From: Candidatus Saccharimonadota bacterium
Lineage (GTDB): Bacteria > Patescibacteriota > Saccharimonadia > Saccharimonadales > Saccharimonadaceae
Direction: 5' to 3'
DNA: 64,000 nucleotides
NCBI GenBank assembly: GCA_003979185.1
Contig: RYWJ01000002.1
Span: 4,650-68,649 of the forward strand
Shown here: positions 3,938 through 30,362 of the stretch, in pieces
Position numbering within the stretch: position 1 is the first letter of the stretch
Layout of the letters: every line of letters begins with the position of its first letter
The notes under the pieces: model-generated
What the model saw: the letters and a program-made list of their open reading frames with translations, nothing else
What the model was told of the DNA's origin: nothing
Database searches by the model: none
Position numbers and translations under genes: made by a program

Positions 3938-5683
3938 ATGGTAGAGAAAATTAAAACAATTTCTCTTTCAAAACTAAAGATTTCCGAAGCTGAAGTCAAC
4001 GGAGTAAGCGAGCGACGCGTAACCTTTGTTGCTTCTACAGATCGAGAAGATCGTGATTATGAAGTAGTAAAGATTGACACGTTTAGGTTACCAACAAAAG
4101 GCGGCGGAAGCATTAAGGTTGCAGATTTGCCAACTGGCGGATCCGATAATGTGGTTATTCCGCTTCTTACTAATCACGATATGTGGAATGTGGAAAAAAC
4201 AATTGGATCAGTCCGTAACGCTTCATTCGAGAACAACCGACTCATCTTTGAAGTAGGAATCTCCTCGCGACCATATGCACAAGACGTCTTTAAGCTAATC
4301 GAAGAGGGGCATCTCGACAATGCATTCTCGATTCGCTATGGGGACTATTCTCATAACTTTGATACCGGCGTAGACACAGATGGTGAAGTTATTGAGGTGT
4401 CTTTAGTTACTCGTGGGTCAAATAAAGACGCCCAGGTTTTAGAAGTTAAAGGAATGAAAGAGGATAACATGAATAAAGCGAAAACTCTGGAAGCCGATCA
4501 AGCTCCAGCAGAACAGACCAACACAGAAACAAATACCAATAATGATGGCGATAACAATGTGCCACAAGAGAATGACGAAGAAAAGGAAAAAGGTATGACA
4601 ACCGATAATAATACACACACAGAGTTTGCAAAAACTCAGGTTAAGACACCATCACAGGCGGCACGTGTCACAACATCGGCACCTGATGATTATTTGAAGT
4701 CCAAGCAAGCAGAACATGATTTTGCGCGCACTATTGTAGATCACTACGGTCAGTCTAGTCAAATGGTCATGAAATCATGGTCAAATAAGCTTAAAGAAAA
4801 AGGCATTACTGGTGACGCAATCTTGCCTGCTAGCCTTGAACAGATTTTCTTCAAAGCGTGGGAAGATCACTACGAAGCGTTGGGGACATTCCGACGAACT
4901 ACGAAGCTTTCGGGTGCTGTGTATGCATTCAATACTACAGATCGAGCATTGGGTCATAAAAAAGGCGAGAAAAAGGCCGAACAAAATTTGTCAGACATCC
5001 GTCGTGACTACAAGTTTAAGGTCATGTACAAGAAGCTGGCTATTGATTTGCAGGATCTCATTGACGACGAAACTGGCGAGCTGCTACGTTTGCGCTCTGA
5101 AGAACTTGCAAGTCGCCGTGGCGACGAGTTAGTCCGAGCAGTTTGGTTTGGCGATGGACGTACTGAGCCATCTGAGGGTAACCCAGATTATCGCCTCTTT
5201 GATGGAACTCGTGGCCCATGGAGCATGGTCAATGATATCAACAATGCGAATACTGCCGGATCATTCAGCCAGGCAGTTGCTACTCAAATTGCTAATGTAG
5301 CATCAGACTCTTTGTGGCAGAAGATTATTAAAGTTCGTGGTGCTATCCGTGGTGGCGTTGGACGTAAAATCATCGTTTTGCCAGAGGGGTCACTAACGGA
5401 GCTTGCAATCGCTACCAAAGACAACGGTGAGCCATTGTTCCCTCTCGGTACTGATATGCAGAATCTATTTGGCTCTTACATATTCGAGTCACCATACATG
5501 GCGACTTCTGGCTATGATGTATTGGGCTATCGTGAGGGTTCTTACCTATTGGCGACTGGCAACCCAATGGTACGCACAATGTTTGATCTCGACTATAACA
5601 CTGATGTTATGCTACAAGAGCAGGCTGTTGCTGGTACCGCTTACGGTCATAAGGTGATTGCTGGCTACAAGTCAAAAGCCTAG
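3938..5683 (+). CDS. Prohead protease / scaffold-like linker / HK97-fold major capsid protein fusion
   Basis: The N-terminus (VTFVASTDREDRDYEVV, LLTNHDMW..IGSV, FSIRYG) resembles HK97-type prohead serine proteases. The middle is an acidic Asn/Thr/Glu-rich low-complexity region. The C-terminal ~300 aa are capsid-like. Confidence 0.65.
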   Translation: MVEKIKTISLSKLKISEAEVNGVSERRVTFVASTDREDRDYEVVKIDTFRLPTKGGGSIKVADLPTGGSDNVVIPLLTNHDMWNVEKTIGSVRNASFENNRLIFEVGISSRPYAQDVFKLIEEGHLDNAFSIRYGDYSHNFDTGVDTDGEVIEVSLVTRGSNKDAQVLEVKGMKEDNMNKAKTLEADQAPAEQTNTETNTNNDGDNNVPQENDEEKEKGMTTDNNTHTEFAKTQVKTPSQAARVTTSAPDDYLKSKQAEHDFARTIVDHYGQSSQMVMKSWSNKLKEKGITGDAILPASLEQIFFKAWEDHYEALGTFRRTTKLSGAVYAFNTTDRALGHKKGEKKAEQNLSDIRRDYKFKVMYKKLAIDLQDLIDDETGELLRLRSEELASRRGDELVRAVWFGDGRTEPSEGNPDYRLFDGTRGPWSMVNDINNANTAGSFSQAVATQIANVASDSLWQKIIKVRGAIRGGVGRKIIVLPEGSLTELAIATKDNGEPLFPLGTDMQNLFGSYIFESPYMATSGYDVLGYREGSYLLATGNPMVRTMFDLDYNTDVMLQEQAVAGTAYGHKVIAGYKSKA

Positions 5684-5776
5684 TCCCCTCAGGTTCATAC
5701 ATAATAACCGAAAATGGTGAGGGGCTACTAACAGAAGATAGTAAACTACTCCTGACACAGTAAAAGAAAGGACGAC

Positions 5777-6184
5777 ATGAGTGACAAACCTATTATTTCC
5801 CAAGAAACGATGGCCGCGTTACTCGGTCGTCCTTTGAGTGACCTAGAGATAGCTAATTACGATCTATATTTAGAGCTAGCCATAGAGCGGCTTGATGATC
5901 TACTGTGCATTAAACTAGAAGACATGGATGATTTGCCAGTAAGGTTAAAGCTACTAATTGCTCGTGCTTTTAATGTCATGAAGCAGGAACAAGCAGCATC
6001 TGAATCTCACGGTATTGACAAGAAACAAGTCGAAGACTTCTCCATTAGCTTCCAGGCTGACGCGAGTAGCCCTATGACTTATTTCGTGGAACAAAACCTT
6101 TCGATATTAAATCAATACAGTAAGTGCCAAGGCTCTATTAGGAGCGGTAAGGTCTATTCACATGACTGTTTTCGATGTATTTAG
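5777..6184 (+). CDS. Head-tail connector (gp6-like) candidate
   Basis: Follows the capsid gene. The N-terminal pattern (LLGRPLSDLEIANYDLYLELAIERLDDL) is typical of gp6-like adaptor proteins. Confidence 0.45.
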   Translation: MSDKPIISQETMAALLGRPLSDLEIANYDLYLELAIERLDDLLCIKLEDMDDLPVRLKLLIARAFNVMKQEQAASESHGIDKKQVEDFSISFQADASSPMTYFVEQNLSILNQYSKCQGSIRSGKVYSHDCFRCI

Positions 6185-6521
6185 CCAAATTGACTATACA
6201 TTCCTCGAAATATCTAGGGGTAATGTTTATGGTAACCGTGTTATCAATCGACGTGTTCTACGTGGAGTTTTTAAGCTACGCGAAAAAATGAGTTCCTCCA
6301 ATAATATGGAGACTGTAGACTCGGACGCTCGCTTACATGCTCATACTAACGACTTTACAGTTAATCCTCATGAGCTGGTAGGCCAAGGGGTAGAAGTAAA
6401 TGGCCAGCAGTATAGTATAGAGGGGGTTTCTGTGGGTGCAAATTTTGATAATGGCGTCATAGAGCATCTGCGATTTGAACTACAAAAAGCTAATTTTGTG
6501 GAGGATTCAAATGGCGAATGA
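6162..6521 (+). CDS. Head-closure/adaptor candidate
   Basis: Assigned by position in the connector block and overlap with its neighbours. No motif recognised. Confidence 0.3.
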   Translation: MTVFDVFSQIDYTFLEISRGNVYGNRVINRRVLRGVFKLREKMSSSNNMETVDSDARLHAHTNDFTVNPHELVGQGVEVNGQQYSIEGVSVGANFDNGVIEHLRFELQKANFVEDSNGE

Positions 6522-6888
6522 CAATGCAGTGGCTCATGTTGCGGTCACGCTTGATGATAGAACTGGCGCATGGTTTGGTGGCAAGATGAATAATATCAAG
6601 GTTGGACTAAATACTATGGGCAAATCTATAGTATCTAGAGCTAAGATGACTGTACCTAAAAAGAGTGGTAACCTGAAAAAGTCCGATAGAGTAGAAGTAC
6701 GTGGCAATGTTTGTATCGTTTCTCTTGGTGGCGGAAGCATTAAATATGGTGACTATCAGGAGCGTGGTATGCGTAAAGATGGCACTCGTGTGGTTAAACA
6801 TTACACTACTGCAGGCACGCATGCCCAGTATCTACAGCAAGCTGGTCTGTCTGTCGTAAAAGAGGGTCTTAGAAAATGGTTACGTTAA
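6511..6888 (+). CDS. HK97 gp10-like tail-completion family protein
   Basis: ATG preceded by GGAGGA. KMTVPKKSGNLKKS and an RGxxK-rich C-terminus resemble the HK97 gp10 family. Confidence 0.45.
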   Translation: MANDNAVAHVAVTLDDRTGAWFGGKMNNIKVGLNTMGKSIVSRAKMTVPKKSGNLKKSDRVEVRGNVCIVSLGGGSIKYGDYQERGMRKDGTRVVKHYTTAGTHAQYLQQAGLSVVKEGLRKWLR

Positions 6889-7391
6889 GCATACTAAAAC
6901 TCTTAGAGAACAATGGCTTTGGAGAAATTGATAAAGACCTTTTCTGGGAGAAGCTTGGCTTGAACGAAACTGGTCTTTATATATCTGATATTGGATCTAG
7001 CCAAAGCCGTACAGCCAAGCGTTCTACAACCTATGAAATATTTAGTCGTGGTGAATCGGACGTAGAGGGATATATGATGATAGAAAAGGTATCTGATTTT
7101 CTAAATTCTCTATTTGATATTTGCAGACTACCATCTGTACCACCAATTACTGATTATGGATATCATGGTGTTTCGTTTCTGCCCGTGAGTACTATATCTA
7201 ACGTTGGAGTCGATATTAATGGTAGAGTTATTTACAGTATAACAGGTCAAGTGTATTGGTCTGATCGCTACAAAGAAACACCAGCACCACCGGTCAAGGC
7301 GATGTATCTAGCGTTAGAAAATGGAAAAGCGTTAAAAACGGAAAATGAAAAAGTAATTTGGAGAGAAGAATGGAAGAAATTGAGGGCGTAA
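6876..7391 (+). CDS. Hypothetical virion protein (tail terminator/minor capsid candidate)
   Basis: Assigned by position in the head-tail joining block only. Confidence 0.3.
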
Positions 7392-8611
7392 AGATAAGTC
7401 AGCTACCAAAAGCTAGTGCGGTTAGTGCAGGCGACCTTATTCCTGGAGTCATTAATGGAGAAACTCAAGCGATTGATGTTAACTTACTAAAAGGCCAAAA
7501 AGGAGACCAAGGTGATGCAGGTCCAGCAGGCCCCCAGGGTGAACAGGGACCTCAAGGCGAAAGGGGACCGCAGGGCGAGCAAGGCGTGGCCGGCCCACAA
7601 GGTGTGCAAGGTGAGCAGGGTCCTGCTGGTGTTGATGGTGCGCCTGGTCCAGCAGGGCCACAAGGCGAAAAAGGAGATCCTGGAGCTGGTATTGCTATTA
7701 GCGGTGAGGTGGAAACCTATGCGGACTTACCTACTAATTTAACCCCAGAAGATGCGGGCAAGTCATATATAGTTAAGGCTGATGGGCTTCTATACATCTG
7801 GAGTGGCATATCTTTCCCTGCAGATGGTGAGGGCACCACTTTTGTAGGACCACAAGGGCCTAAGGGTGACAAGGGTGATAAAGGTGATAAAGGTGAGCAG
7901 GGCGAGCAAGGCCCGCAAGGTATCCAGGGTGAGCAAGGTATCCAGGGGGAACAGGGACCTCAAGGCGAGCCAGGTACTGGTGGCGAGTTATACGATGAGT
8001 ATGGCCAGAATACGGACGGGGCTTTAACGCAGAAGTTCGTAAGTGATATATTGAACGCTCAAAATCCTGCTATAGGCTTAAGAGCAACAGCTGGCTCATA
8101 TAGCACCGCTTTAGGAGATAGTGCCAAGGCTTCTAATTATGGAACTGCTATTGGGCGGCAGGCCATAGCGAGTAGTCTGGGCTCTGTGGCTATGGGGGAT
8201 GGTGCGCGCGCTATGGCTAAAGGCGCTGTAGCTTTAGGGGTAGAATCGACGGCTACCATCGAAGGAGAAGTCAATATTGGCGCAAAGGCGGGGTACGGTT
8301 ATCAAGGAAGCAATAGCCGTGTTCTAGCTGGCCTACATGATGGTGTTGAAGATGACCACGCAACCACTGTTGCTCAACTAAATACTACCAAAACGGAGCT
8401 TGAAACCAAAATCGCAAATGATTTGATGGAATATTACAATAAAACCGAGTCTGACAATAAATTTGTTGACAAGACTGCAATTGTTCAGTCAACTGGTGAG
8501 TCCACAACTGCCATAATGAGTCAAAAAGCCATTACGGATATGATAGGTGGCGTGGAAGCTCGACTTGTGAGCCTAAATAGCGGAGAAGGAGTTCAAAATG
8601 ACAATCAATAG
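7370..8611 (+). CDS. Collagen-like repeat fibre protein with adhesin-like head repeats
   Basis: Two Gly-X-Y blocks (about 7494-7690 and 7850-7980). N-terminal KISQLPKA fibre-type start. C-terminal Ala/Gly-rich SxAxG repeats and [22 protein letters not shown] resemble trimeric autotransporter head/neck motifs. Confidence 0.7.
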
Positions 8612-9719
8612 TGAGATCTCTATTCTTGAACAGAATATTGCCAGCTCATACAATACCATAAAGAACAAAGGCGGTTCTTTGCCAGAGCAACTCAATACAG
8701 AGAATTTGGCTGGAGCTATAGCTACGTTGGAAGATGCGGGTGTTACTCCTGGCGAATATGGCGCATTATATTATTTAGTTGGGGTTAATGGTAAAACTGT
8801 TCTTCGTGGCGTACAGCTCAATACTATAGACGACTTTAATGCTATGTGTACAGATGGAAACCAACAGTCATCCATTACAATAAACGGTCAGTCTATTCTA
8901 AAAAGCACAATTGTAAGATATACCTTTGGGTCTGCTGAGTTAACCAGTCTACCAGATAACTTTTGCTATTATTTTTCAAACATGTCGCAAATGTCAAACA
9001 TGCCGGATTCAATCACTAGCATAGGTAGTAATTTTATGAGGGCGTGTCAGGCGTTCAATCAATCAATACATTTTAGCAATAATCTTCAAACTATTGGTAG
9101 TTATTGTTTAGCTAACAATTATAAACGTAGCGCCAATACAGATCTCTCAAATACGAAGTTGACCAGTTTACCAGACTACTTTATGGCTTGGTGCTATAAT
9201 TTTAACGGCAAGCTAACATTGCCAGCTTCGCTCAAAAGCATTGGCAATAGAGTGCTTCAATCATGCAATTCGTTTTCGCAAGTGTTAGAAATTCCAGAAT
9301 CAGTAGAATCTATTGGGGATTTCTTCTTGAGTTGGTGTCATAGTTACAATGTAGCAATAACGATTCCAGGAGGTGTAAGAAGCATCGGGGATTATTTTAT
9401 GAATACGTGCTATGCGTTTAACTCCGAGATTAGTCTTGGTGATAGTATTGAAACAATTGGGGATTATTTTATGAGTAGATGCATAGTATTTAATCAAGCC
9501 CTGACAATGCCAGCTTCGCTCAAAAGCATTGGCACCTCTTTCCTCAACCGGTGTATTTCATTAACTTATTACCCGACATTCAATTGTCCAAATTTGACTA
9601 CGATTGGGGACTATTTTCTCAATGAGTGCGCATATTTAAGCGGTACAGGTGGGCGGGTTGATCTTACTAATACAACAGTTGCAGAGATTGGCCGTGGCTT
9701 CTTGTGGGGGGTGTACTAA
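8598..9719 (+). CDS. BspA-type leucine-rich repeat (LRR_5-like) protein, N-terminal part of a split gene
   Basis: Reiterated ~23-aa units (IGxxFxxxCxxFNxxLxxPxSLxS). The ORF ends just after a G6 tract in the middle of a repeat unit. Confidence 0.6.
9706..9711 (+). repeat. Homopolymeric G6 tract at the junction of the two LRR ORFs
   Basis: The sequence reads ttg tgg ggg gtg tac taa. Removing one G gives [15 protein letters not shown], which restores the repeat consensus and fuses 8598-9719 to 9721-10203. Confidence 0.8.
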
Positions 9720-9720
9720 A

Positions 9721-26356: not shown

Positions 26357-27271
26357 ATGCCATATAGGCTAGAAAAATATAATATTAGTCCCAATAAACC
26401 AATTTATCATCAGGCTAAGCACTATTACGAGTTATGTGAGCTTGAGTGGAACTTTACCAAACAGACTATGGAAAATAAAATAAATTCGTTAAATCACTTC
26501 CTGAGATACTCTAGGTTAGATAGACTAGAAAACTTGACTAATGAGATGGTCACAGATTACATCAAAAGCCAAGCTGAGCGAGGCTTAAAACCAAGAACCA
26601 TAAATAATCGGACTAAACATATTCTAGCGATTGCCCGCTACTACATGGACTATGAGGATATGGAAATACCGAGATTCAGGGATCGGAAAATCAAGAAGCA
26701 GCACGAGGAACAGTCTGATAAACGCGCATTCTCACGTGATATAGTTTATGAAGCTTTAGCCTATGCCGATCGTGAAGCTTGGCTGCTTATTAAAATTGGA
26801 TTTGACTGTGGGCTTCGCATTAGCGAACTAAGAATGATGCACTTGAAAGACCTAGACGGCAATAGGCTTCTAGTACATGGTAAGGGGCGAAAAAAACGGT
26901 TTGCGATTCTGAATGATGAAACATTAGTGCGCCTGAAAGACTGGATAAATCAAAGGCATGTTACTACGCATATCTTTGAGAGTAACTATTCGGGTCACCG
27001 TGGCAGGCCAAAAAGCGGTCAAGCTCTACGCACGATCATGCGTAAACCATTTACGAAATGCGGGATAGTAAATGCTTGTCCACACGAGCTGCGCCACTCT
27101 TATGCTAGCGATTTGCTAGACCTTGGCGCGTCGGTTCGTAGCATACAACAAGCTCTAGGGCATAGTACAGAACGAATAACTGAGACATATCTGCATGAGC
27201 TTGTGCCTGGAAAAACGATGAAACAGCTTTACGATCTAAAATATTCCGCATCAGAGCCAAATTTGCGCTGA
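26357..27271 (+). CDS. int: Tyrosine recombinase / phage integrase
   Basis: Catalytic signature GLRISELR ... HELRHSYAS ... LGHSTERITETYLH (R...HxxR...H...Y). The N-terminal SAM-like core-binding region is present. Confidence 0.9.
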   Translation: MPYRLEKYNISPNKPIYHQAKHYYELCELEWNFTKQTMENKINSLNHFLRYSRLDRLENLTNEMVTDYIKSQAERGLKPRTINNRTKHILAIARYYMDYEDMEIPRFRDRKIKKQHEEQSDKRAFSRDIVYEALAYADREAWLLIKIGFDCGLRISELRMMHLKDLDGNRLLVHGKGRKKRFAILNDETLVRLKDWINQRHVTTHIFESNYSGHRGRPKSGQALRTIMRKPFTKCGIVNACPHELRHSYASDLLDLGASVRSIQQALGHSTERITETYLHELVPGKTMKQLYDLKYSASEPNLR

Positions 27272-27324
27272 AAACTAAGAGCCCCCAGTCCTATGGCTGG
27301 GGGCAAAAATAAGCAAAAAGATTA

Positions 27325-27353
27325 TTGACATTTTTTAGCTAGTGATATATAAT
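27325..27353 (+). promoter_or_regulatory. Consensus sigma70 promoter (TTGACA-17 nt-TATAAT)
   Basis: Read directly. It points into about 480 nt with no convincing ORF, followed by the Asn-rich fragment. Confidence 0.5.
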
Positions 27354-27892
27354 GAAAATATCAAGCAGTTTTACAAAACGAACCAATTGTCCTAGGTTAA
27401 TAGGAGTAGGGTATACTCCTTATGCCGCGGTTGTAAAGAAAATCTTTGAACACCACAAGGGTGTTACAACAATCTACTGGCGGACATGTCGTTCGTCGAG
27501 AAAGTACCTCATGGTGCTGTTTAATCCGACGAACTGGTCGATAAAAAAATCGACGACCGCAAAACATTGTAGATTATTGTAACATTATCAGTATAACAAA
27601 TCTTGATTCATTATGCAAATCAACTTTACCGACAAAAATAAAAATATAGAATATATAAAAAACACAAGTATTATATTATAATAAGAATATGGAGAATAAG
27701 CCTCCACGGGCTCGGACGGAAGTCACTGAGGTCAAGCTCCGGCAACCCGACGTACCCTATAATCTATAGGATTGTGAAGCTCTTCAACGCCGTGAAACAA
27801 ATCTCACTCAGCGTTGGTTAGTAGTATTGTATTTGGTCAAGGTCATTTGCAAGCGTAAAAGAGCTTCTTATCCCTATGCGGTAGATTGCTTC

Positions 27893-28070
27893 CCTTATGC
27901 CGGGAACGTCAACGATAGCGCTCTTAACAATGTCGGCTCCAACGGTAGGTATTGGTCACGTACTGCCAACTCTACCAACAACGCATACAACCTGAACTTC
28001 AATAGTACCAATGTTAACCCGGCCAACAACAATAGCCGTTACAACGGTTACTCCGTACGCTGCGTCGCCG
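27893..28070 (+). other. Start-less C-terminal fragment of a FISUMP/DUF1566-type (C-type-lectin-like) domain, AAC/Asn-rich, resembling a DGR template or variable repeat
   Basis: Translation PYAGNVNDSALNNVGSNGRYWSRTANSTNNAYNLNFNSTNVNPANNNSRYNGYSVRCV. The frame is closed at 27767 and has no ATG. Seventeen of 54 codons are Asn, 13 of them AAC, in an AT-rich genome. A GC-rich string CGTACGCTGCGTCGCCG sits at the 3' end. Confidence 0.5.
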
Positions 28071-28096
28071 TATTCCAATCCTATAATCCATCAAAG

Positions 28097-28132
28097 AATC
28101 TAGTGGTCTTAATACGAGCTGCTAGATTTTTT
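28097..28132 (+). terminator. Weak terminator-like hairpin after the Asn-rich fragment
   Basis: AATCTAG-18 nt-CTAGATT followed by TTTT. The loop is large. Confidence 0.3.
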
Positions 28133-28202
28133 CAAAGTTTAGTGGACCCGAAAAACAGACCCAAAATATAATTTTACCAATAAGCTTACTAAGTATAGTA
28201 TA

Positions 28203-28499
28203 ATGGATAATATGGAAGTTAATCAGGATACTATTGCGCACCTTGCTAAGCTGTCGGATTTTGCCTTGACCGAAGATGAAAGTGTGCGCTTAGAAGCAGA
28301 TATTAACGGGATCGTTAATTATATTTCGCAGCTAGATGAGCTCGATACAACTGGCGTTGAGCCGACTTATCAAGTTTTCGAGATGGAAAATATTTGGCGC
28401 GAGGATGAGATTTTGCCACAAGAAGCCGATCGAGAAGCTTTGCTGGGACTAGCAAAAGAAGTAAAAGATAACCAAATCAAAGTGCCGAAGGTGCTATAA
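28203..28499 (+). CDS. gatC: Asp/Glu-tRNA amidotransferase subunit C
   Basis: GatC-like sequence (IAHLAKLS...LTEDE...I.NYISQLDELDT.GVEPT). TATAAT lies just upstream, so the true start may be the ATG at 28212 (leaderless). Confidence 0.9.
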   Translation: MDNMEVNQDTIAHLAKLSDFALTEDESVRLEADINGIVNYISQLDELDTTGVEPTYQVFEMENIWREDEILPQEADREALLGLAKEVKDNQIKVPKVL

Positions 28500-28509
28500 G
28501 GGACTAAAG

Positions 28510-29943
28510 ATGAAAACTGCGAGTAAAGATATAAGTGCAATGACCCTGGTCAAAGAGGCTTTAACTAAGGCTCATCAGTATCAGGAACAGTATCATATTT
28601 TTAATTATTTCAACGACACTGAGGCAATCAGGAAGGCGGCGGAGATTGACGAGCGAATTAAACGCGGAGAGAATGTAGGTCGTTTGGCGGGCGTGCCTTA
28701 TGCCCTGAAGGACAACTTCTTAAGTCCTGAGGGGGAAACTACGGCTTCTGCGCATATTCTAGAGGGTTTCACTAGTCCAGTAACTGCGACGGCGGTGAAG
28801 AGATTGGAGGATGAGGGGGCGATTATGATTGGTCGTACCAATCTTGATGCTTTTGCTCATGGATCCTCTACGGAGAATTCTTACTATGGTCCGACCAAGA
28901 ACTCTAAAGATTTGGAACGGGTAGCAGGTGGCAGCTCGGGTGGCTCGGCTGTAGCGGTAGCTTTGGGTATTGTGCCTTTTGCGACTGGCACTGATACTGG
29001 CGGTTCGATTCGTCAGCCAGCCTCCTTTAATGGTGTTTATGGGTTGAAACCAACTTATGGTACGATTTCGCGTTATGGTGTGGTCGCAATGGCTTCATCG
29101 ACAGATTGCGTTGGATTCTTTACCGAAAATCCTGAAGATATGGATTTGCTGATGAAAGTAACAGCTGGTCAGGATCCAAATGATATGACTACCTTGCCAG
29201 ATTTCTACGATCGGGAAGAAAAGTTTGATGATCCTATTAAGAAGATTGGGGTCATCAAAGATTTTGATAATGAAGCTGTCAGTCCGGAAATCCGCACTTG
29301 TCTTAGTCGCGAAATTGAGAAGCTCAAGGCGGCTGGACATGAAATAGTTGAGTTAAATATGCCAGCGTTAAAGTATGCTTTAGCGGCCTATTATATTATT
29401 ACTCCTGCTGAAGTAGCTAGTAACCTTTCGCGGCATGATGGTGTGCGTTATGGTTTCCGCAGTGAGAATGTGCAGACCTTGGATGAGTTGTATAATAACA
29501 CTCGCAATGAGGGATTCATGCCAGAGAATAAGCGACGAATTATGATCGGTAACTTCGTTTTGTCTGCTGGTTTTTACGACGCATATTATTTGAAAGCTGC
29601 AAAGGCACGAACTTTGATCATTCAGGAGTACGCACAGGCTTTTGAAAAGTGCGATTTGATTTTGACGCCAGTTAGTCCGAATCCGGCGTTTAAGCTAGGT
29701 GAAAAGGTAGATAATCCAGTGGCGATGTACTTGGAGGATATGATGTCGGTTTCTTTGAATCTGGCTGGCTTGCCAGGCTTAGCTATTCCGGTAGGAGAAA
29801 CGACTAATGGGCTCAGCCTAGGCTTGCAGTTGGTAGGTCCACGAAGAAGCGACCAAGAGCTGATCAACTTTGCCAAGCGAATGCGGGGTGATCATGAATC
29901 GGCTGAGGATGAACACGTAGATCTCATGGGAGGGAATGATTAA
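28510..29943 (+). CDS. gatA: Asp/Glu-tRNA amidotransferase subunit A
   Basis: Amidase signature (GGSSGGSAVAVA, GTDTGGSIRQPA). Confidence 0.95.
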   Translation: MKTASKDISAMTLVKEALTKAHQYQEQYHIFNYFNDTEAIRKAAEIDERIKRGENVGRLAGVPYALKDNFLSPEGETTASAHILEGFTSPVTATAVKRLEDEGAIMIGRTNLDAFAHGSSTENSYYGPTKNSKDLERVAGGSSGGSAVAVALGIVPFATGTDTGGSIRQPASFNGVYGLKPTYGTISRYGVVAMASSTDCVGFFTENPEDMDLLMKVTAGQDPNDMTTLPDFYDREEKFDDPIKKIGVIKDFDNEAVSPEIRTCLSREIEKLKAAGHEIVELNMPALKYALAAYYIITPAEVASNLSRHDGVRYGFRSENVQTLDELYNNTRNEGFMPENKRRIMIGNFVLSAGFYDAYYLKAAKARTLIIQEYAQAFEKCDLILTPVSPNPAFKLGEKVDNPVAMYLEDMMSVSLNLAGLPGLAIPVGETTNGLSLGLQLVGPRRSDQELINFAKRMRGDHESAEDEHVDLMGGND

Positions 29944-30362
29944 TGTGGCCGCAAATGATTTTCTTAGTGATTGCGATTATCGCGGTAGCTCTGTTGGCTC
30001 TCGTGGCAATGGTCTTAGGAGGAAAACATCGTCATGAGTTTGATGTACAAGCTTATCAAACTCGCTGGTTGAAAATTGAAAATGGCTTAAATAAGACTAA
30101 TCAATCCAGCTATAACTTTGCAGTCTTGGAAGCTGATAAACTGTTGGGATGTGCGCTAGAAGAGATGGGCATCCCCGGTAAGACGATGGGTGAGCGGTTA
30201 AAGAGAATCGGTGATGGTCTACCAAATATTAGCCGAGTATGGTATGCGCATCGTCTGCGCAATCAGATTGCTCACGAAAGTGATTTTCGTTTGAAGTATG
30301 ACCAAGCGCGACAGGCATTGTCGATTTTTAAGCAAGCATTAAAAGATTTAGGAGCGATTTAG
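29943..30362 (+). CDS. Membrane-anchored protein with HEPN-like RxxxxH motif, inserted between gatA and gatB
   Basis: N-terminal TM helix. The C-terminal helical domain carries WYAHRLRNQIAHE (R-x4-H). The ATG overlaps the gatA stop, and its own stop abuts the gatB ATG. Confidence 0.4.
   Translation: MWPQMIFLVIAIIAVALLALVAMVLGGKHRHEFDVQAYQTRWLKIENGLNKTNQSSYNFAVLEADKLLGCALEEMGIPGKTMGERLKRIGDGLPNISRVWYAHRLRNQIAHESDFRLKYDQARQALSIFKQALKDLGAI

Follow-up and report, generated by a model that had tools for sequence, protein, structure and literature searches.

A probable free-standing template repeat of a diversity-generating retroelement upstream of gatCAB in a Candidatus Saccharimonadota contig, and its dispersed variable repeats

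The window analysed here, a 64,000-nucleotide stretch of contig RYWJ01000002.1 (assembly GCA_003979185.1, from a Candidatus Saccharimonadota bacterium), carries between a prophage end and the gatCAB genes a 180-nt asparagine-rich block (27889-28068) that is probably a genuine template repeat (TR) of a diversity-generating retroelement (DGR), one that templated adenine-mutagenised variable repeats (VRs) in trans with a reverse transcriptase (RT) encoded elsewhere. A preliminary description of the same DNA, made from the letters alone, had left a choice between a TR used in trans, half of a cassette split by the prophage, and a gene remnant. The TR used in trans emerges as the best reading, because the adenine-specific partners lie outside the window and the block is the sole A-rich, invariant copy of its family. 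The system is ordinary for a DGR in its chemistry and target type; what is unusual is a free-standing TR away from any RT and a very large family of acceptors.

The partners came to light in protein searches with the translation of a spurious open reading frame (ORF) spanning the block, which returned three kinds of match: the same ORF beside gatCAB in a contig of a different sample (L001, 99% identical), numerous Asn-rich mini-ORFs belonging to TRs of other DGRs, and the FISUMP C-termini of two proteins, P0003 and P0002, at 80-82% identity. The locus encoding P0003 (L004) matches the window over exactly 180 nt, with both flanks unrelated, and it is from such sharp boundaries, at which homology to the partner repeats starts and stops, that the limits of the repeat were taken; the preliminary description had correctly seen a coding block at 27905-28066, but the true repeat extends beyond these 162 nt. 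Measured against the window allele, 14 of the 16 mismatches in L004 fall at TR adenines, and one of the other two is a TR polymorphism common to L001. The ratios of adenine to non-adenine mismatches are 14:2 for L004, 17:5 for L036 and 20:8 for L043; against the TR allele of a JGI contig, L056, they become 16:1 (Fisher p 5e-9), 19:3 (3e-9) and 22:6 (3e-9), respectively, with p values for the three VRs across both alleles of about 3e-9 to 3e-7. The search for a repeat differing at adenines, which the preliminary description had proposed, thus found its partners on other contigs, and its statement that the window itself holds none was borne out by an adenine-masked scan of both strands of the 64 kb, in which no VR partner rose above background.

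Further VRs were retrieved with a pattern anchored at both ends (CTTCCCTTATGCCGG and CGCTGCGTCGC, separated by 135-165 nt), which gave 44 loci from JGI metagenomes. The JGI, ENA and Logan loci together hold 55 distinct VRs and one TR type, which is always adjacent to gatC. Among these ~60 copies, only the gatC-adjacent unit is both A-rich and Asn-rich, and no other Asn-rich copy occurs in any fetched locus of the window's lineage; the block is the master copy, a TR rather than a decayed variable region. Across the 28 distinct VRs of 180 nt, the mismatch rate is 48% at TR adenines versus 17% at other positions, and the column entropy is 1.30 bits versus 0.39 (Mann-Whitney p=6e-16). The substitutions at TR adenines comprise 315 A->G, 259 A->T and 81 A->C. 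Inside the VR, P0003 and P0291, two variants of a cognate target, differ only at codons derived from TR adenines. Because the variable bases correspond to adenines of the + strand, the template RNA would be + sense, in the same direction as gatC. The TR itself is 98-100% identical in six assemblies, with 100% identity in L005, L006 and L007, one substitution in L001 (a contig whose break is Illumina adapter sequence) and three in L056. Patterns of the TR with every A allowed to vary gave zero matches in two scans of a genome-contig collection and one of a viral-contig collection, and the anchored VR/TR pattern gave zero matches in the viral-contig collection. The lack of matches to the TR patterns indicates that the species is missing from these collections, the GTDB-representative genomes included.

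The composition of the block is that noticed in the preliminary description. The segment 27905-28066 (NVNDSAL...SVRCV) encodes NVNDSALNNVGSNGRYWSRTANSTNNAYNLNFNSTNVNPANNNSRYNGYSVRCV, in which Asn accounts for 17 of 54 codons (31%, compared with 4.7% in the host proteins of the window; binomial 2e-10), and 13 of the 17 Asn codons are AAC, compared with 30% AAC among background Asn codons (p=1e-4); adenine makes up 28% of the TR. The reading frame lacks a start codon, as had been described: ATG does not occur in it, and a stop closes it upstream of the TTG at 27827, leaving no usable ORF. Gene callers nevertheless annotate the TTG ORF in other assemblies (P0001), with a weak Pfam match to DUF8237. 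The likeness to FISUMP/DUF1566 C-termini was also recovered, at scores below the curated cut-offs: the block aligns to the C-terminal parts of the Lcl_C (DUF1566) profile, at positions 66-116 of 117 (E 4.5e-4, 20.9 bits, cut-off 34.9), and of the Fib_succ_major profile, at positions 130-186 of 187 (E 1.2e-3, 19.6 bits, cut-off 33.9), and only the last ~55 residues align. With a partial domain, a score below cut-off, no ATG and a frame closed upstream, the block is not a complete Fib_succ_major/DUF1566 (Lcl_C) gene. It ends, as previously noted, in a GC-rich segment followed by a hairpin with a T-run, beyond which a promoter-like site for gatC lies at 28143-28172 (Table 1).

Table 1. Features of the TR unit and the adjoining prophage end (window coordinates)
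Feature	Position	Strand	Description
Probable DGR template repeat (TR)	27889-28068	+	180 nt with 50 A and 17 Asn codons; template sense on the + strand
Spurious 114-codon TTG ORF spanning the TR (Asn-rich reading frame)	27827-28171	+	No in-frame ATG
GC-rich 3' end of the TR, similar to an initiation of mutagenic homing (IMH) site	28054-28068	+	CGTACGCTGCGTCGC; last segment common to VRs
Intrinsic-terminator-like hairpin with T-run	28093-28134	+	17-bp stem, -17.2 kcal/mol, z=-2.83; closes the TR unit ahead of the gatC promoter
Host leader upstream of the TR	27571-27888	+	AT-rich stretch with weak promoter-like site, then GC-rich stem-loops
Host hairpin element directly right of attB	27466-27570	+	Minimum free energy -33.6 kcal/mol, z=-4.18, 0/200 shuffles equally stable
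attR core, right prophage/host junction	27451-27465		CACCACAAGGGTGTT, 15-mer
Consensus sigma-70 promoter in prophage DNA	27325-27353	+	TTGACA-17-TATAAT, 12/12 consensus positions
Prophage tyrosine integrase (context, outside the DGR)	26357-27271	+	Pfam Phage_integrase, E 8e-27

The VRs end three codons before the stop (...RCVATT, then stop) of Fib_succ_major/Lcl_C proteins, which range from 5'-truncated fragments of 81 amino acids to proteins of ~540 amino acids. TR and VRs have the GC-rich end CGCTGCGTCGC in common and part company directly after it: past ...GCTGCGTCGC, the TR runs on as CGTATTCCAATCC, while the VRs run on as TACTACCTAAATAGTATATGGGTTAAGGGTGGTGAGGGG, a conserved 39-nt element found directly after 45 of the 55 distinct VRs and replaced by unrelated sequence after the TR. 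This placement is the arrangement expected for target recognition of the IMH type, a role that the 3' element may therefore have. The JGI metagenome Ga0137298 (loci L025-L067) holds 25 VR copies on 11 contigs totalling 349 kb, and no TR match was found in these loci; if these VRs belong to one genome, it would have unusually many DGR-type acceptors. The VR proteins presumably adopt a lectin fold, according to the literature classification of their family (PMC5758913). An AlphaFold model of one target, P0196, built on a 40-sequence alignment, is confident only for residues 73-181; it had no match in the PDB, by fold or by sequence, and its matches in BFVD were confined to phage proteins with a FISUMP domain (E 0.02, TM 0.42-0.47).

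The closest relatives with a complete cassette are two loci in Saccharibacteria metagenome-assembled genomes, L012 in GCA_017431945.1 and L013 in GCA_017404405.1, where a homologous Asn-rich TR stands immediately beside a DGR RT of 385-400 amino acids (IGNLTSQ motif), a gene for a 303-amino-acid accessory protein, and a FISUMP target. Their TR:VR mismatches (adenine to non-adenine) are 20:1 and 17:1, and their TR lies on the strand opposite to RT and target. Cassettes from the candidate phyla radiation (CPR) with a TR, a reverse-strand accessory gene and an RT correspond to architecture B3 of Wu et al. 2018 (PMC5758913). The window resembles these two loci in its Asn-rich TR, encoding ...NNVGSNG.YWS...AYNLNFNS...NG.SVRCV., in its FISUMP/DUF1566-type target, in a TR opposite in strand to the target, and in adenine-specific TR/VR differences. 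It departs from them in its surroundings: whereas the TR of L012 and L013 is ~0-100 nt from the RT gene with a single target adjacent, that of the window has gatC on one side and, beyond the prophage, a non-cognate FISUMP gene on the other, its cognate VRs lie elsewhere, and neither an RT nor the 303-amino-acid accessory gene was found near it (64-kb window, its left and right extensions L008 and L089, and 609 kb of fetched loci).

The DNA on the upstream side of the TR is composite. Two contigs obtained by look-up of window proteins, a 144-kb public contig reaching 9 kb to the left of the window (L008; NODE_136 of ERZ13410478) and a Logan contig (L009), carry the 15-bp core CACCACAAGGGTGTT of attR at attL (L008 4720-4734) and at attP (L009 2789-2803), with flanks that diverge on the expected sides. 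L009 represents the circular attP form, in which the integrase stands directly before attP and is followed by the left-end genes of the phage, and the window is identical to it up to 27465. The prophage thus spans ~32 kb, from ~4.5 kb left of the window start (L008 part 4735-10000) to 27465; host sequence starts again at 27466, and the insertion lies 423 nt upstream of the TR. The preliminary description had read a consensus promoter leading into some 480 nt of hairpin-rich sequence. The promoter is present and perfect; because the attR core lies at 27451-27465, however, the promoter and 27354-27465 are phage DNA, so promoter and leader are not a single transcription unit of the host, and the right prophage end comprises the promoter together with the initial ~110 nt. 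In the circular phage this promoter points across attP into the early genes, and in the lysogen across attR toward the TR, to which it could, speculatively, add read-through transcription. Consensus promoters beside integrases are best compared with att junctions before they are assigned to host features.

The prophage encodes ERF, RtcB and YopX proteins, a terminase, a prohead protease, collagen/YadA-like and BspA-LRR fibre proteins, a portal, a tape measure protein and the integrase, and was without a match in the INPHARED phage collection; the attP contig indicates that it excises or circularises. An apparent second integrase at 63070 was rejected, as the 304-amino-acid ORF is a lactate dehydrogenase. 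On the minus strand at 16074-16183 lies a tRNA-like gene (Rfam tRNA, 51.8 bits; no ARAGORN call) whose anticodon loop reads CUCCAAA (CCA, Trp) and which has either an insertion of ~40 nt or a long variable arm, in the same phage as the RtcB RNA ligase. The phage also carries a 187-amino-acid Lcl_C/FISUMP-like protein (L008 6942-7505) whose VR-like C-terminus is not cognate to the TR; this VR-like end is identical in three phage copies and resembles the VR of the host gene FISUMP-536 described below, with the same 6-nt insertion. A distant relative of this protein in IMG/VR has no RT.

Host DNA to the right of the junction begins with a stable hairpin element, which may lie outside the TR transcript. 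A diverged homologue of this hairpin adjoins an unoccupied attB in JGI contigs L062 and L041, with the loop ATGGTGCTGT kept and both stem halves changed compensatorily (GTTCGTCG/CGACGAAC versus GTTCACCG/CGGTGAAC). The leader that follows is ~99% identical in L056 and contains a weak promoter-like site at 27625-27652 (TTTACC-16-TAGAAT, 9/12 consensus). Its description as hairpin-rich holds locally, for 27466-27570 (z=-4.2) and for 27780-27890 (z=-2.3), and poorly for the unit as a whole. No leader family was found in Rfam, either in a gathering-threshold scan of the whole window or in an E<=10 scan of 27250-28220, which gave chance-level snoRNA/miRNA matches only.

In host DNA the TR adjoins gatC, upstream of gatCAB. 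In the phage-free reconstruction its other neighbour, 705 nt from TR to start codon, is a divergent Fib_succ_major gene of 536 codons (FISUMP-536, L008 2842-4452, minus strand), now left of the prophage and followed by dnaE. FISUMP-536 has a VR that is non-cognate: it differs from the TR by 16 non-A mismatches, contains a 6-nt insertion and is not followed by the 3' element. Three assemblies share exactly this VR (L008 from ENA, L038 and L061 from JGI); the gene looks like a frozen former DGR target. A membrane-anchored ORF of 139 amino acids without a Pfam match lies between gatA and gatB (29943-30362) and is kept in every related contig.

Several results weigh against a TR that is still served by an RT elsewhere in the genome, beginning with the RT itself. 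Pfam searches of all ORFs of at least 150 amino acids, and tblastn with the two DGR RTs and the accessory proteins of L012 and L013, found no RT within the 64-kb window, in agreement with the preliminary description, which had seen neither RT nor Avd there. None was found in the host DNA that L008 provides beyond the left prophage end (4.7 kb), which reaches to 5.2 kb from the TR in the phage-free arrangement and 37 kb in the lysogen, in the 8.5 kb right of the window (L089), that is, to 44 kb from the TR, or in the 609 kb of fetched loci, which include the lineage loci with ~60 VR copies. The right-hand extension through Ldh holds housekeeping genes only. For an accessory protein (Avd or the CPR type of 295-303 amino acids), the L012/L013 queries likewise gave no tblastn match in the window or the loci. 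With no RT 5.2 kb to the left in the phage-free state or 44 kb to the right, the TR does not have an RT within 1 kb, the distance used in surveys. A profile of the L012 and L013 RTs collected 5845 Saccharibacteria-type RTs, none linkable to the genome of the window, and viral RT relatives are 27-38% identical. One candidate RT, P0176, was rejected as belonging to an unrelated, GC-richer organism. The fold of the whole TR unit is only marginally above shuffled sequence (z=-1.8), and its leader cannot be aligned with the leaders in L012 and L013, where the TRs are RT-linked, no conserved blocks being found outside the TR.

These negatives, covering ~80 kb around the TR and the 609 kb of loci, are what one would see if the TR were a relic, its RT since lost from the lineage and the VRs a fossil diversity reshaped by ordinary mutation and recombination among paralogues. 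Most VRs are indeed not fresh copies: they carry 11-29 non-A mismatches, 27 of the 55 have a length other than 180 nt, and the indels come in multiples of three. Several recur unchanged in many samples and studies, such as P0214, which occurs on 19 contigs in a total of four studies, and the VR of FISUMP-536 beside dnaE. Nor does the TR surpass its flanks in conservation: when the window is compared with L056, it shows 3 differences in 180 nt and the flanks ~5 in 420 nt. Such features speak, with some uncertainty, against activity or for activity that is rare and episodic. A relic nevertheless sits badly with the near-pure adenine patterns of L004, L036 and L043, whose 1-6 non-A differences indicate that homing from this TR allele was recent on the scale of strain divergence, with the purely adenine-derived differences between P0003 and P0291, and with the retention of the VR-specific 3' element in 45 of 55 copies; moreover, the sequence searched is only a fraction of any genome. 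We consider a relic unlikely. The same three VRs and the P0003/P0291 pair tentatively favour recent activity of the probable trans-acting TR, which may or may not extend to the present.

The remaining explanations fare worse. Were the prophage to have split a complete cassette, an RT should stand just past its left end; a ~32-kb prophage did insert between the TR and the divergent FISUMP-536, which are close neighbours without it, so the part of the earlier suggestion concerning a separated FISUMP gene holds. That gene's VR is non-cognate, however, the 4.7 kb of left host flank hold just two genes, FISUMP-536 and dnaE, neither of them an RT, and an RT would not fit into the reconstructed attB interval, which makes a split cassette very improbable. 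The notion that the block is mainly a DNA donor for gene conversion into the VR family, like the silent cassettes of antigenic variation, rather than an RNA template, draws on the conserved flanks on both sides of the VRs and on a mosaic, VR1 of L002 (L002 199-382), which reproduces the TR, unmutated adenines included, over its first ~100 nt and diverges in the remainder, with a different 3' flank; this VR points to gene conversion at the DNA level as well, and so tells against RNA templating as the sole process. It also draws on one VR (GGVWDGKLNRPDSNGNYW..., P0195 cluster) that stands unchanged behind at least four different 5' contexts, and on the hybrid ORFs P0289, P0292 and P0293, in which a target 5' part is joined to the TR and the TR's own 3' flank (...RCVAVFQSYNPSKNL...). 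These hybrids are either assembly chimeras formed through identical stretches of at least 100 nt, or real recombinants or inversions between an inverted VR and the TR. DNA-level exchange thus seems to occur in the VR family too, cassette recombination being suggested only; adenine-restricted substitutions are impossible by gene conversion, and the TR does not have the VR flanks that recombination would need, so a role mainly as DNA donor is improbable. Strongly disfavoured, and the most improbable of all, is a plain pseudogene, a decayed VR left as a 3' FISUMP fragment with no templating role. The missing start codon and N-terminal domain would suit it, as would the many 5'-truncated FISUMP fragments of the lineage; yet no other copy has 17 Asn codons and 28% A, the adenines of the block coincide exactly with the family's hypervariable columns, the block has neither the VR 3' element nor the VR 5' coding flank, and it is homologous to the RT-adjacent TRs of L012 and L013.

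If the block is a TR used in trans, it would form, with its leader and terminator, a stand-alone non-coding unit upstream of gatCAB, probably in a Saccharibacteria genome, to judge by the named sources of the nearest homologues and by loci L012 and L013. The + strand of this unit would be transcribed, and a DGR RT encoded elsewhere would copy the TR RNA and misincorporate opposite its adenines; the resulting cDNA would then replace the homologous 180-nt VR at the 3' end of scattered genes of the FISUMP/DUF1566 type (C-type-lectin-like), with acceptors marked by the common GC-rich end and by the 39-nt element that the TR is without. A bolder picture, which we put forward as doubtful, has one RT-detached master TR serving several dozen dispersed VR cassettes in a reduced epibiont genome, many of them in 5'-truncated genes and each with the 39-nt tag, so that RT mutagenesis and cassette recombination would amount to antigenic variation in two layers, with TR expression perhaps coupled to lysogeny by the prophage promoter.

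Elements of such a system have precedents. VRs in DUF1566/Fib_succ_major domains are the 'category d / CLec2' DGR targets, and remote targets are known (PMC5758913). The window TR is like the DGR of Legionella pneumophila (LdtA) and other CLec2 DGRs in that the VR occupies the DUF1566/Fib_succ_major-type C-terminus of a presumably surface-exposed protein (PMC5758913), although the Pfam matches in the window are weak and Legionella has a compact cassette (avd-TR-RT) whose target is adjacent. The DGR of Treponema denticola has 7 remote targets (PMC5758913), and incomplete loci of Thiohalocapsa PB-PSB1 have been proposed to be served in trans by an RT and/or TR elsewhere (PMC10907252). As in these two organisms, the TR described here would serve distant VRs, with components for incomplete loci encoded elsewhere; in both, however, the TR still stands beside the RT, whereas here the TR itself is detached, and the VR family is larger, with 55 distinct members overall and 25 copies in one metagenome. 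The many 5'-truncated variable cassettes with conserved flanks, and the same segment behind different contexts, also recall the silent cassettes of pilS/pilE and vls, which differ from the present family in that the signature here is adenine-specific and of the RT type. Large DGR surveys require the repeat to lie within 1 kb of an RT (PMC8144416); because they anchor on the RT in this way, a detached TR with a dispersed VR family would be missed.

What the locus means depends on the RT. Should the enzyme be gone, the locus would be a snapshot of DGR decay, in which the TR is kept while the VRs drift and the recognition elements erode. Should an RT be confirmed at another place in the genome, it would follow that TR RNA can form a unit of its own under separate regulation, and that a single template can supply dozens of lectin-like surface-protein cassettes in an ultra-small epibiont for which host attachment is central to survival; both the prevalence of DGRs and the number of their targets in CPR bacteria would then be underestimated.

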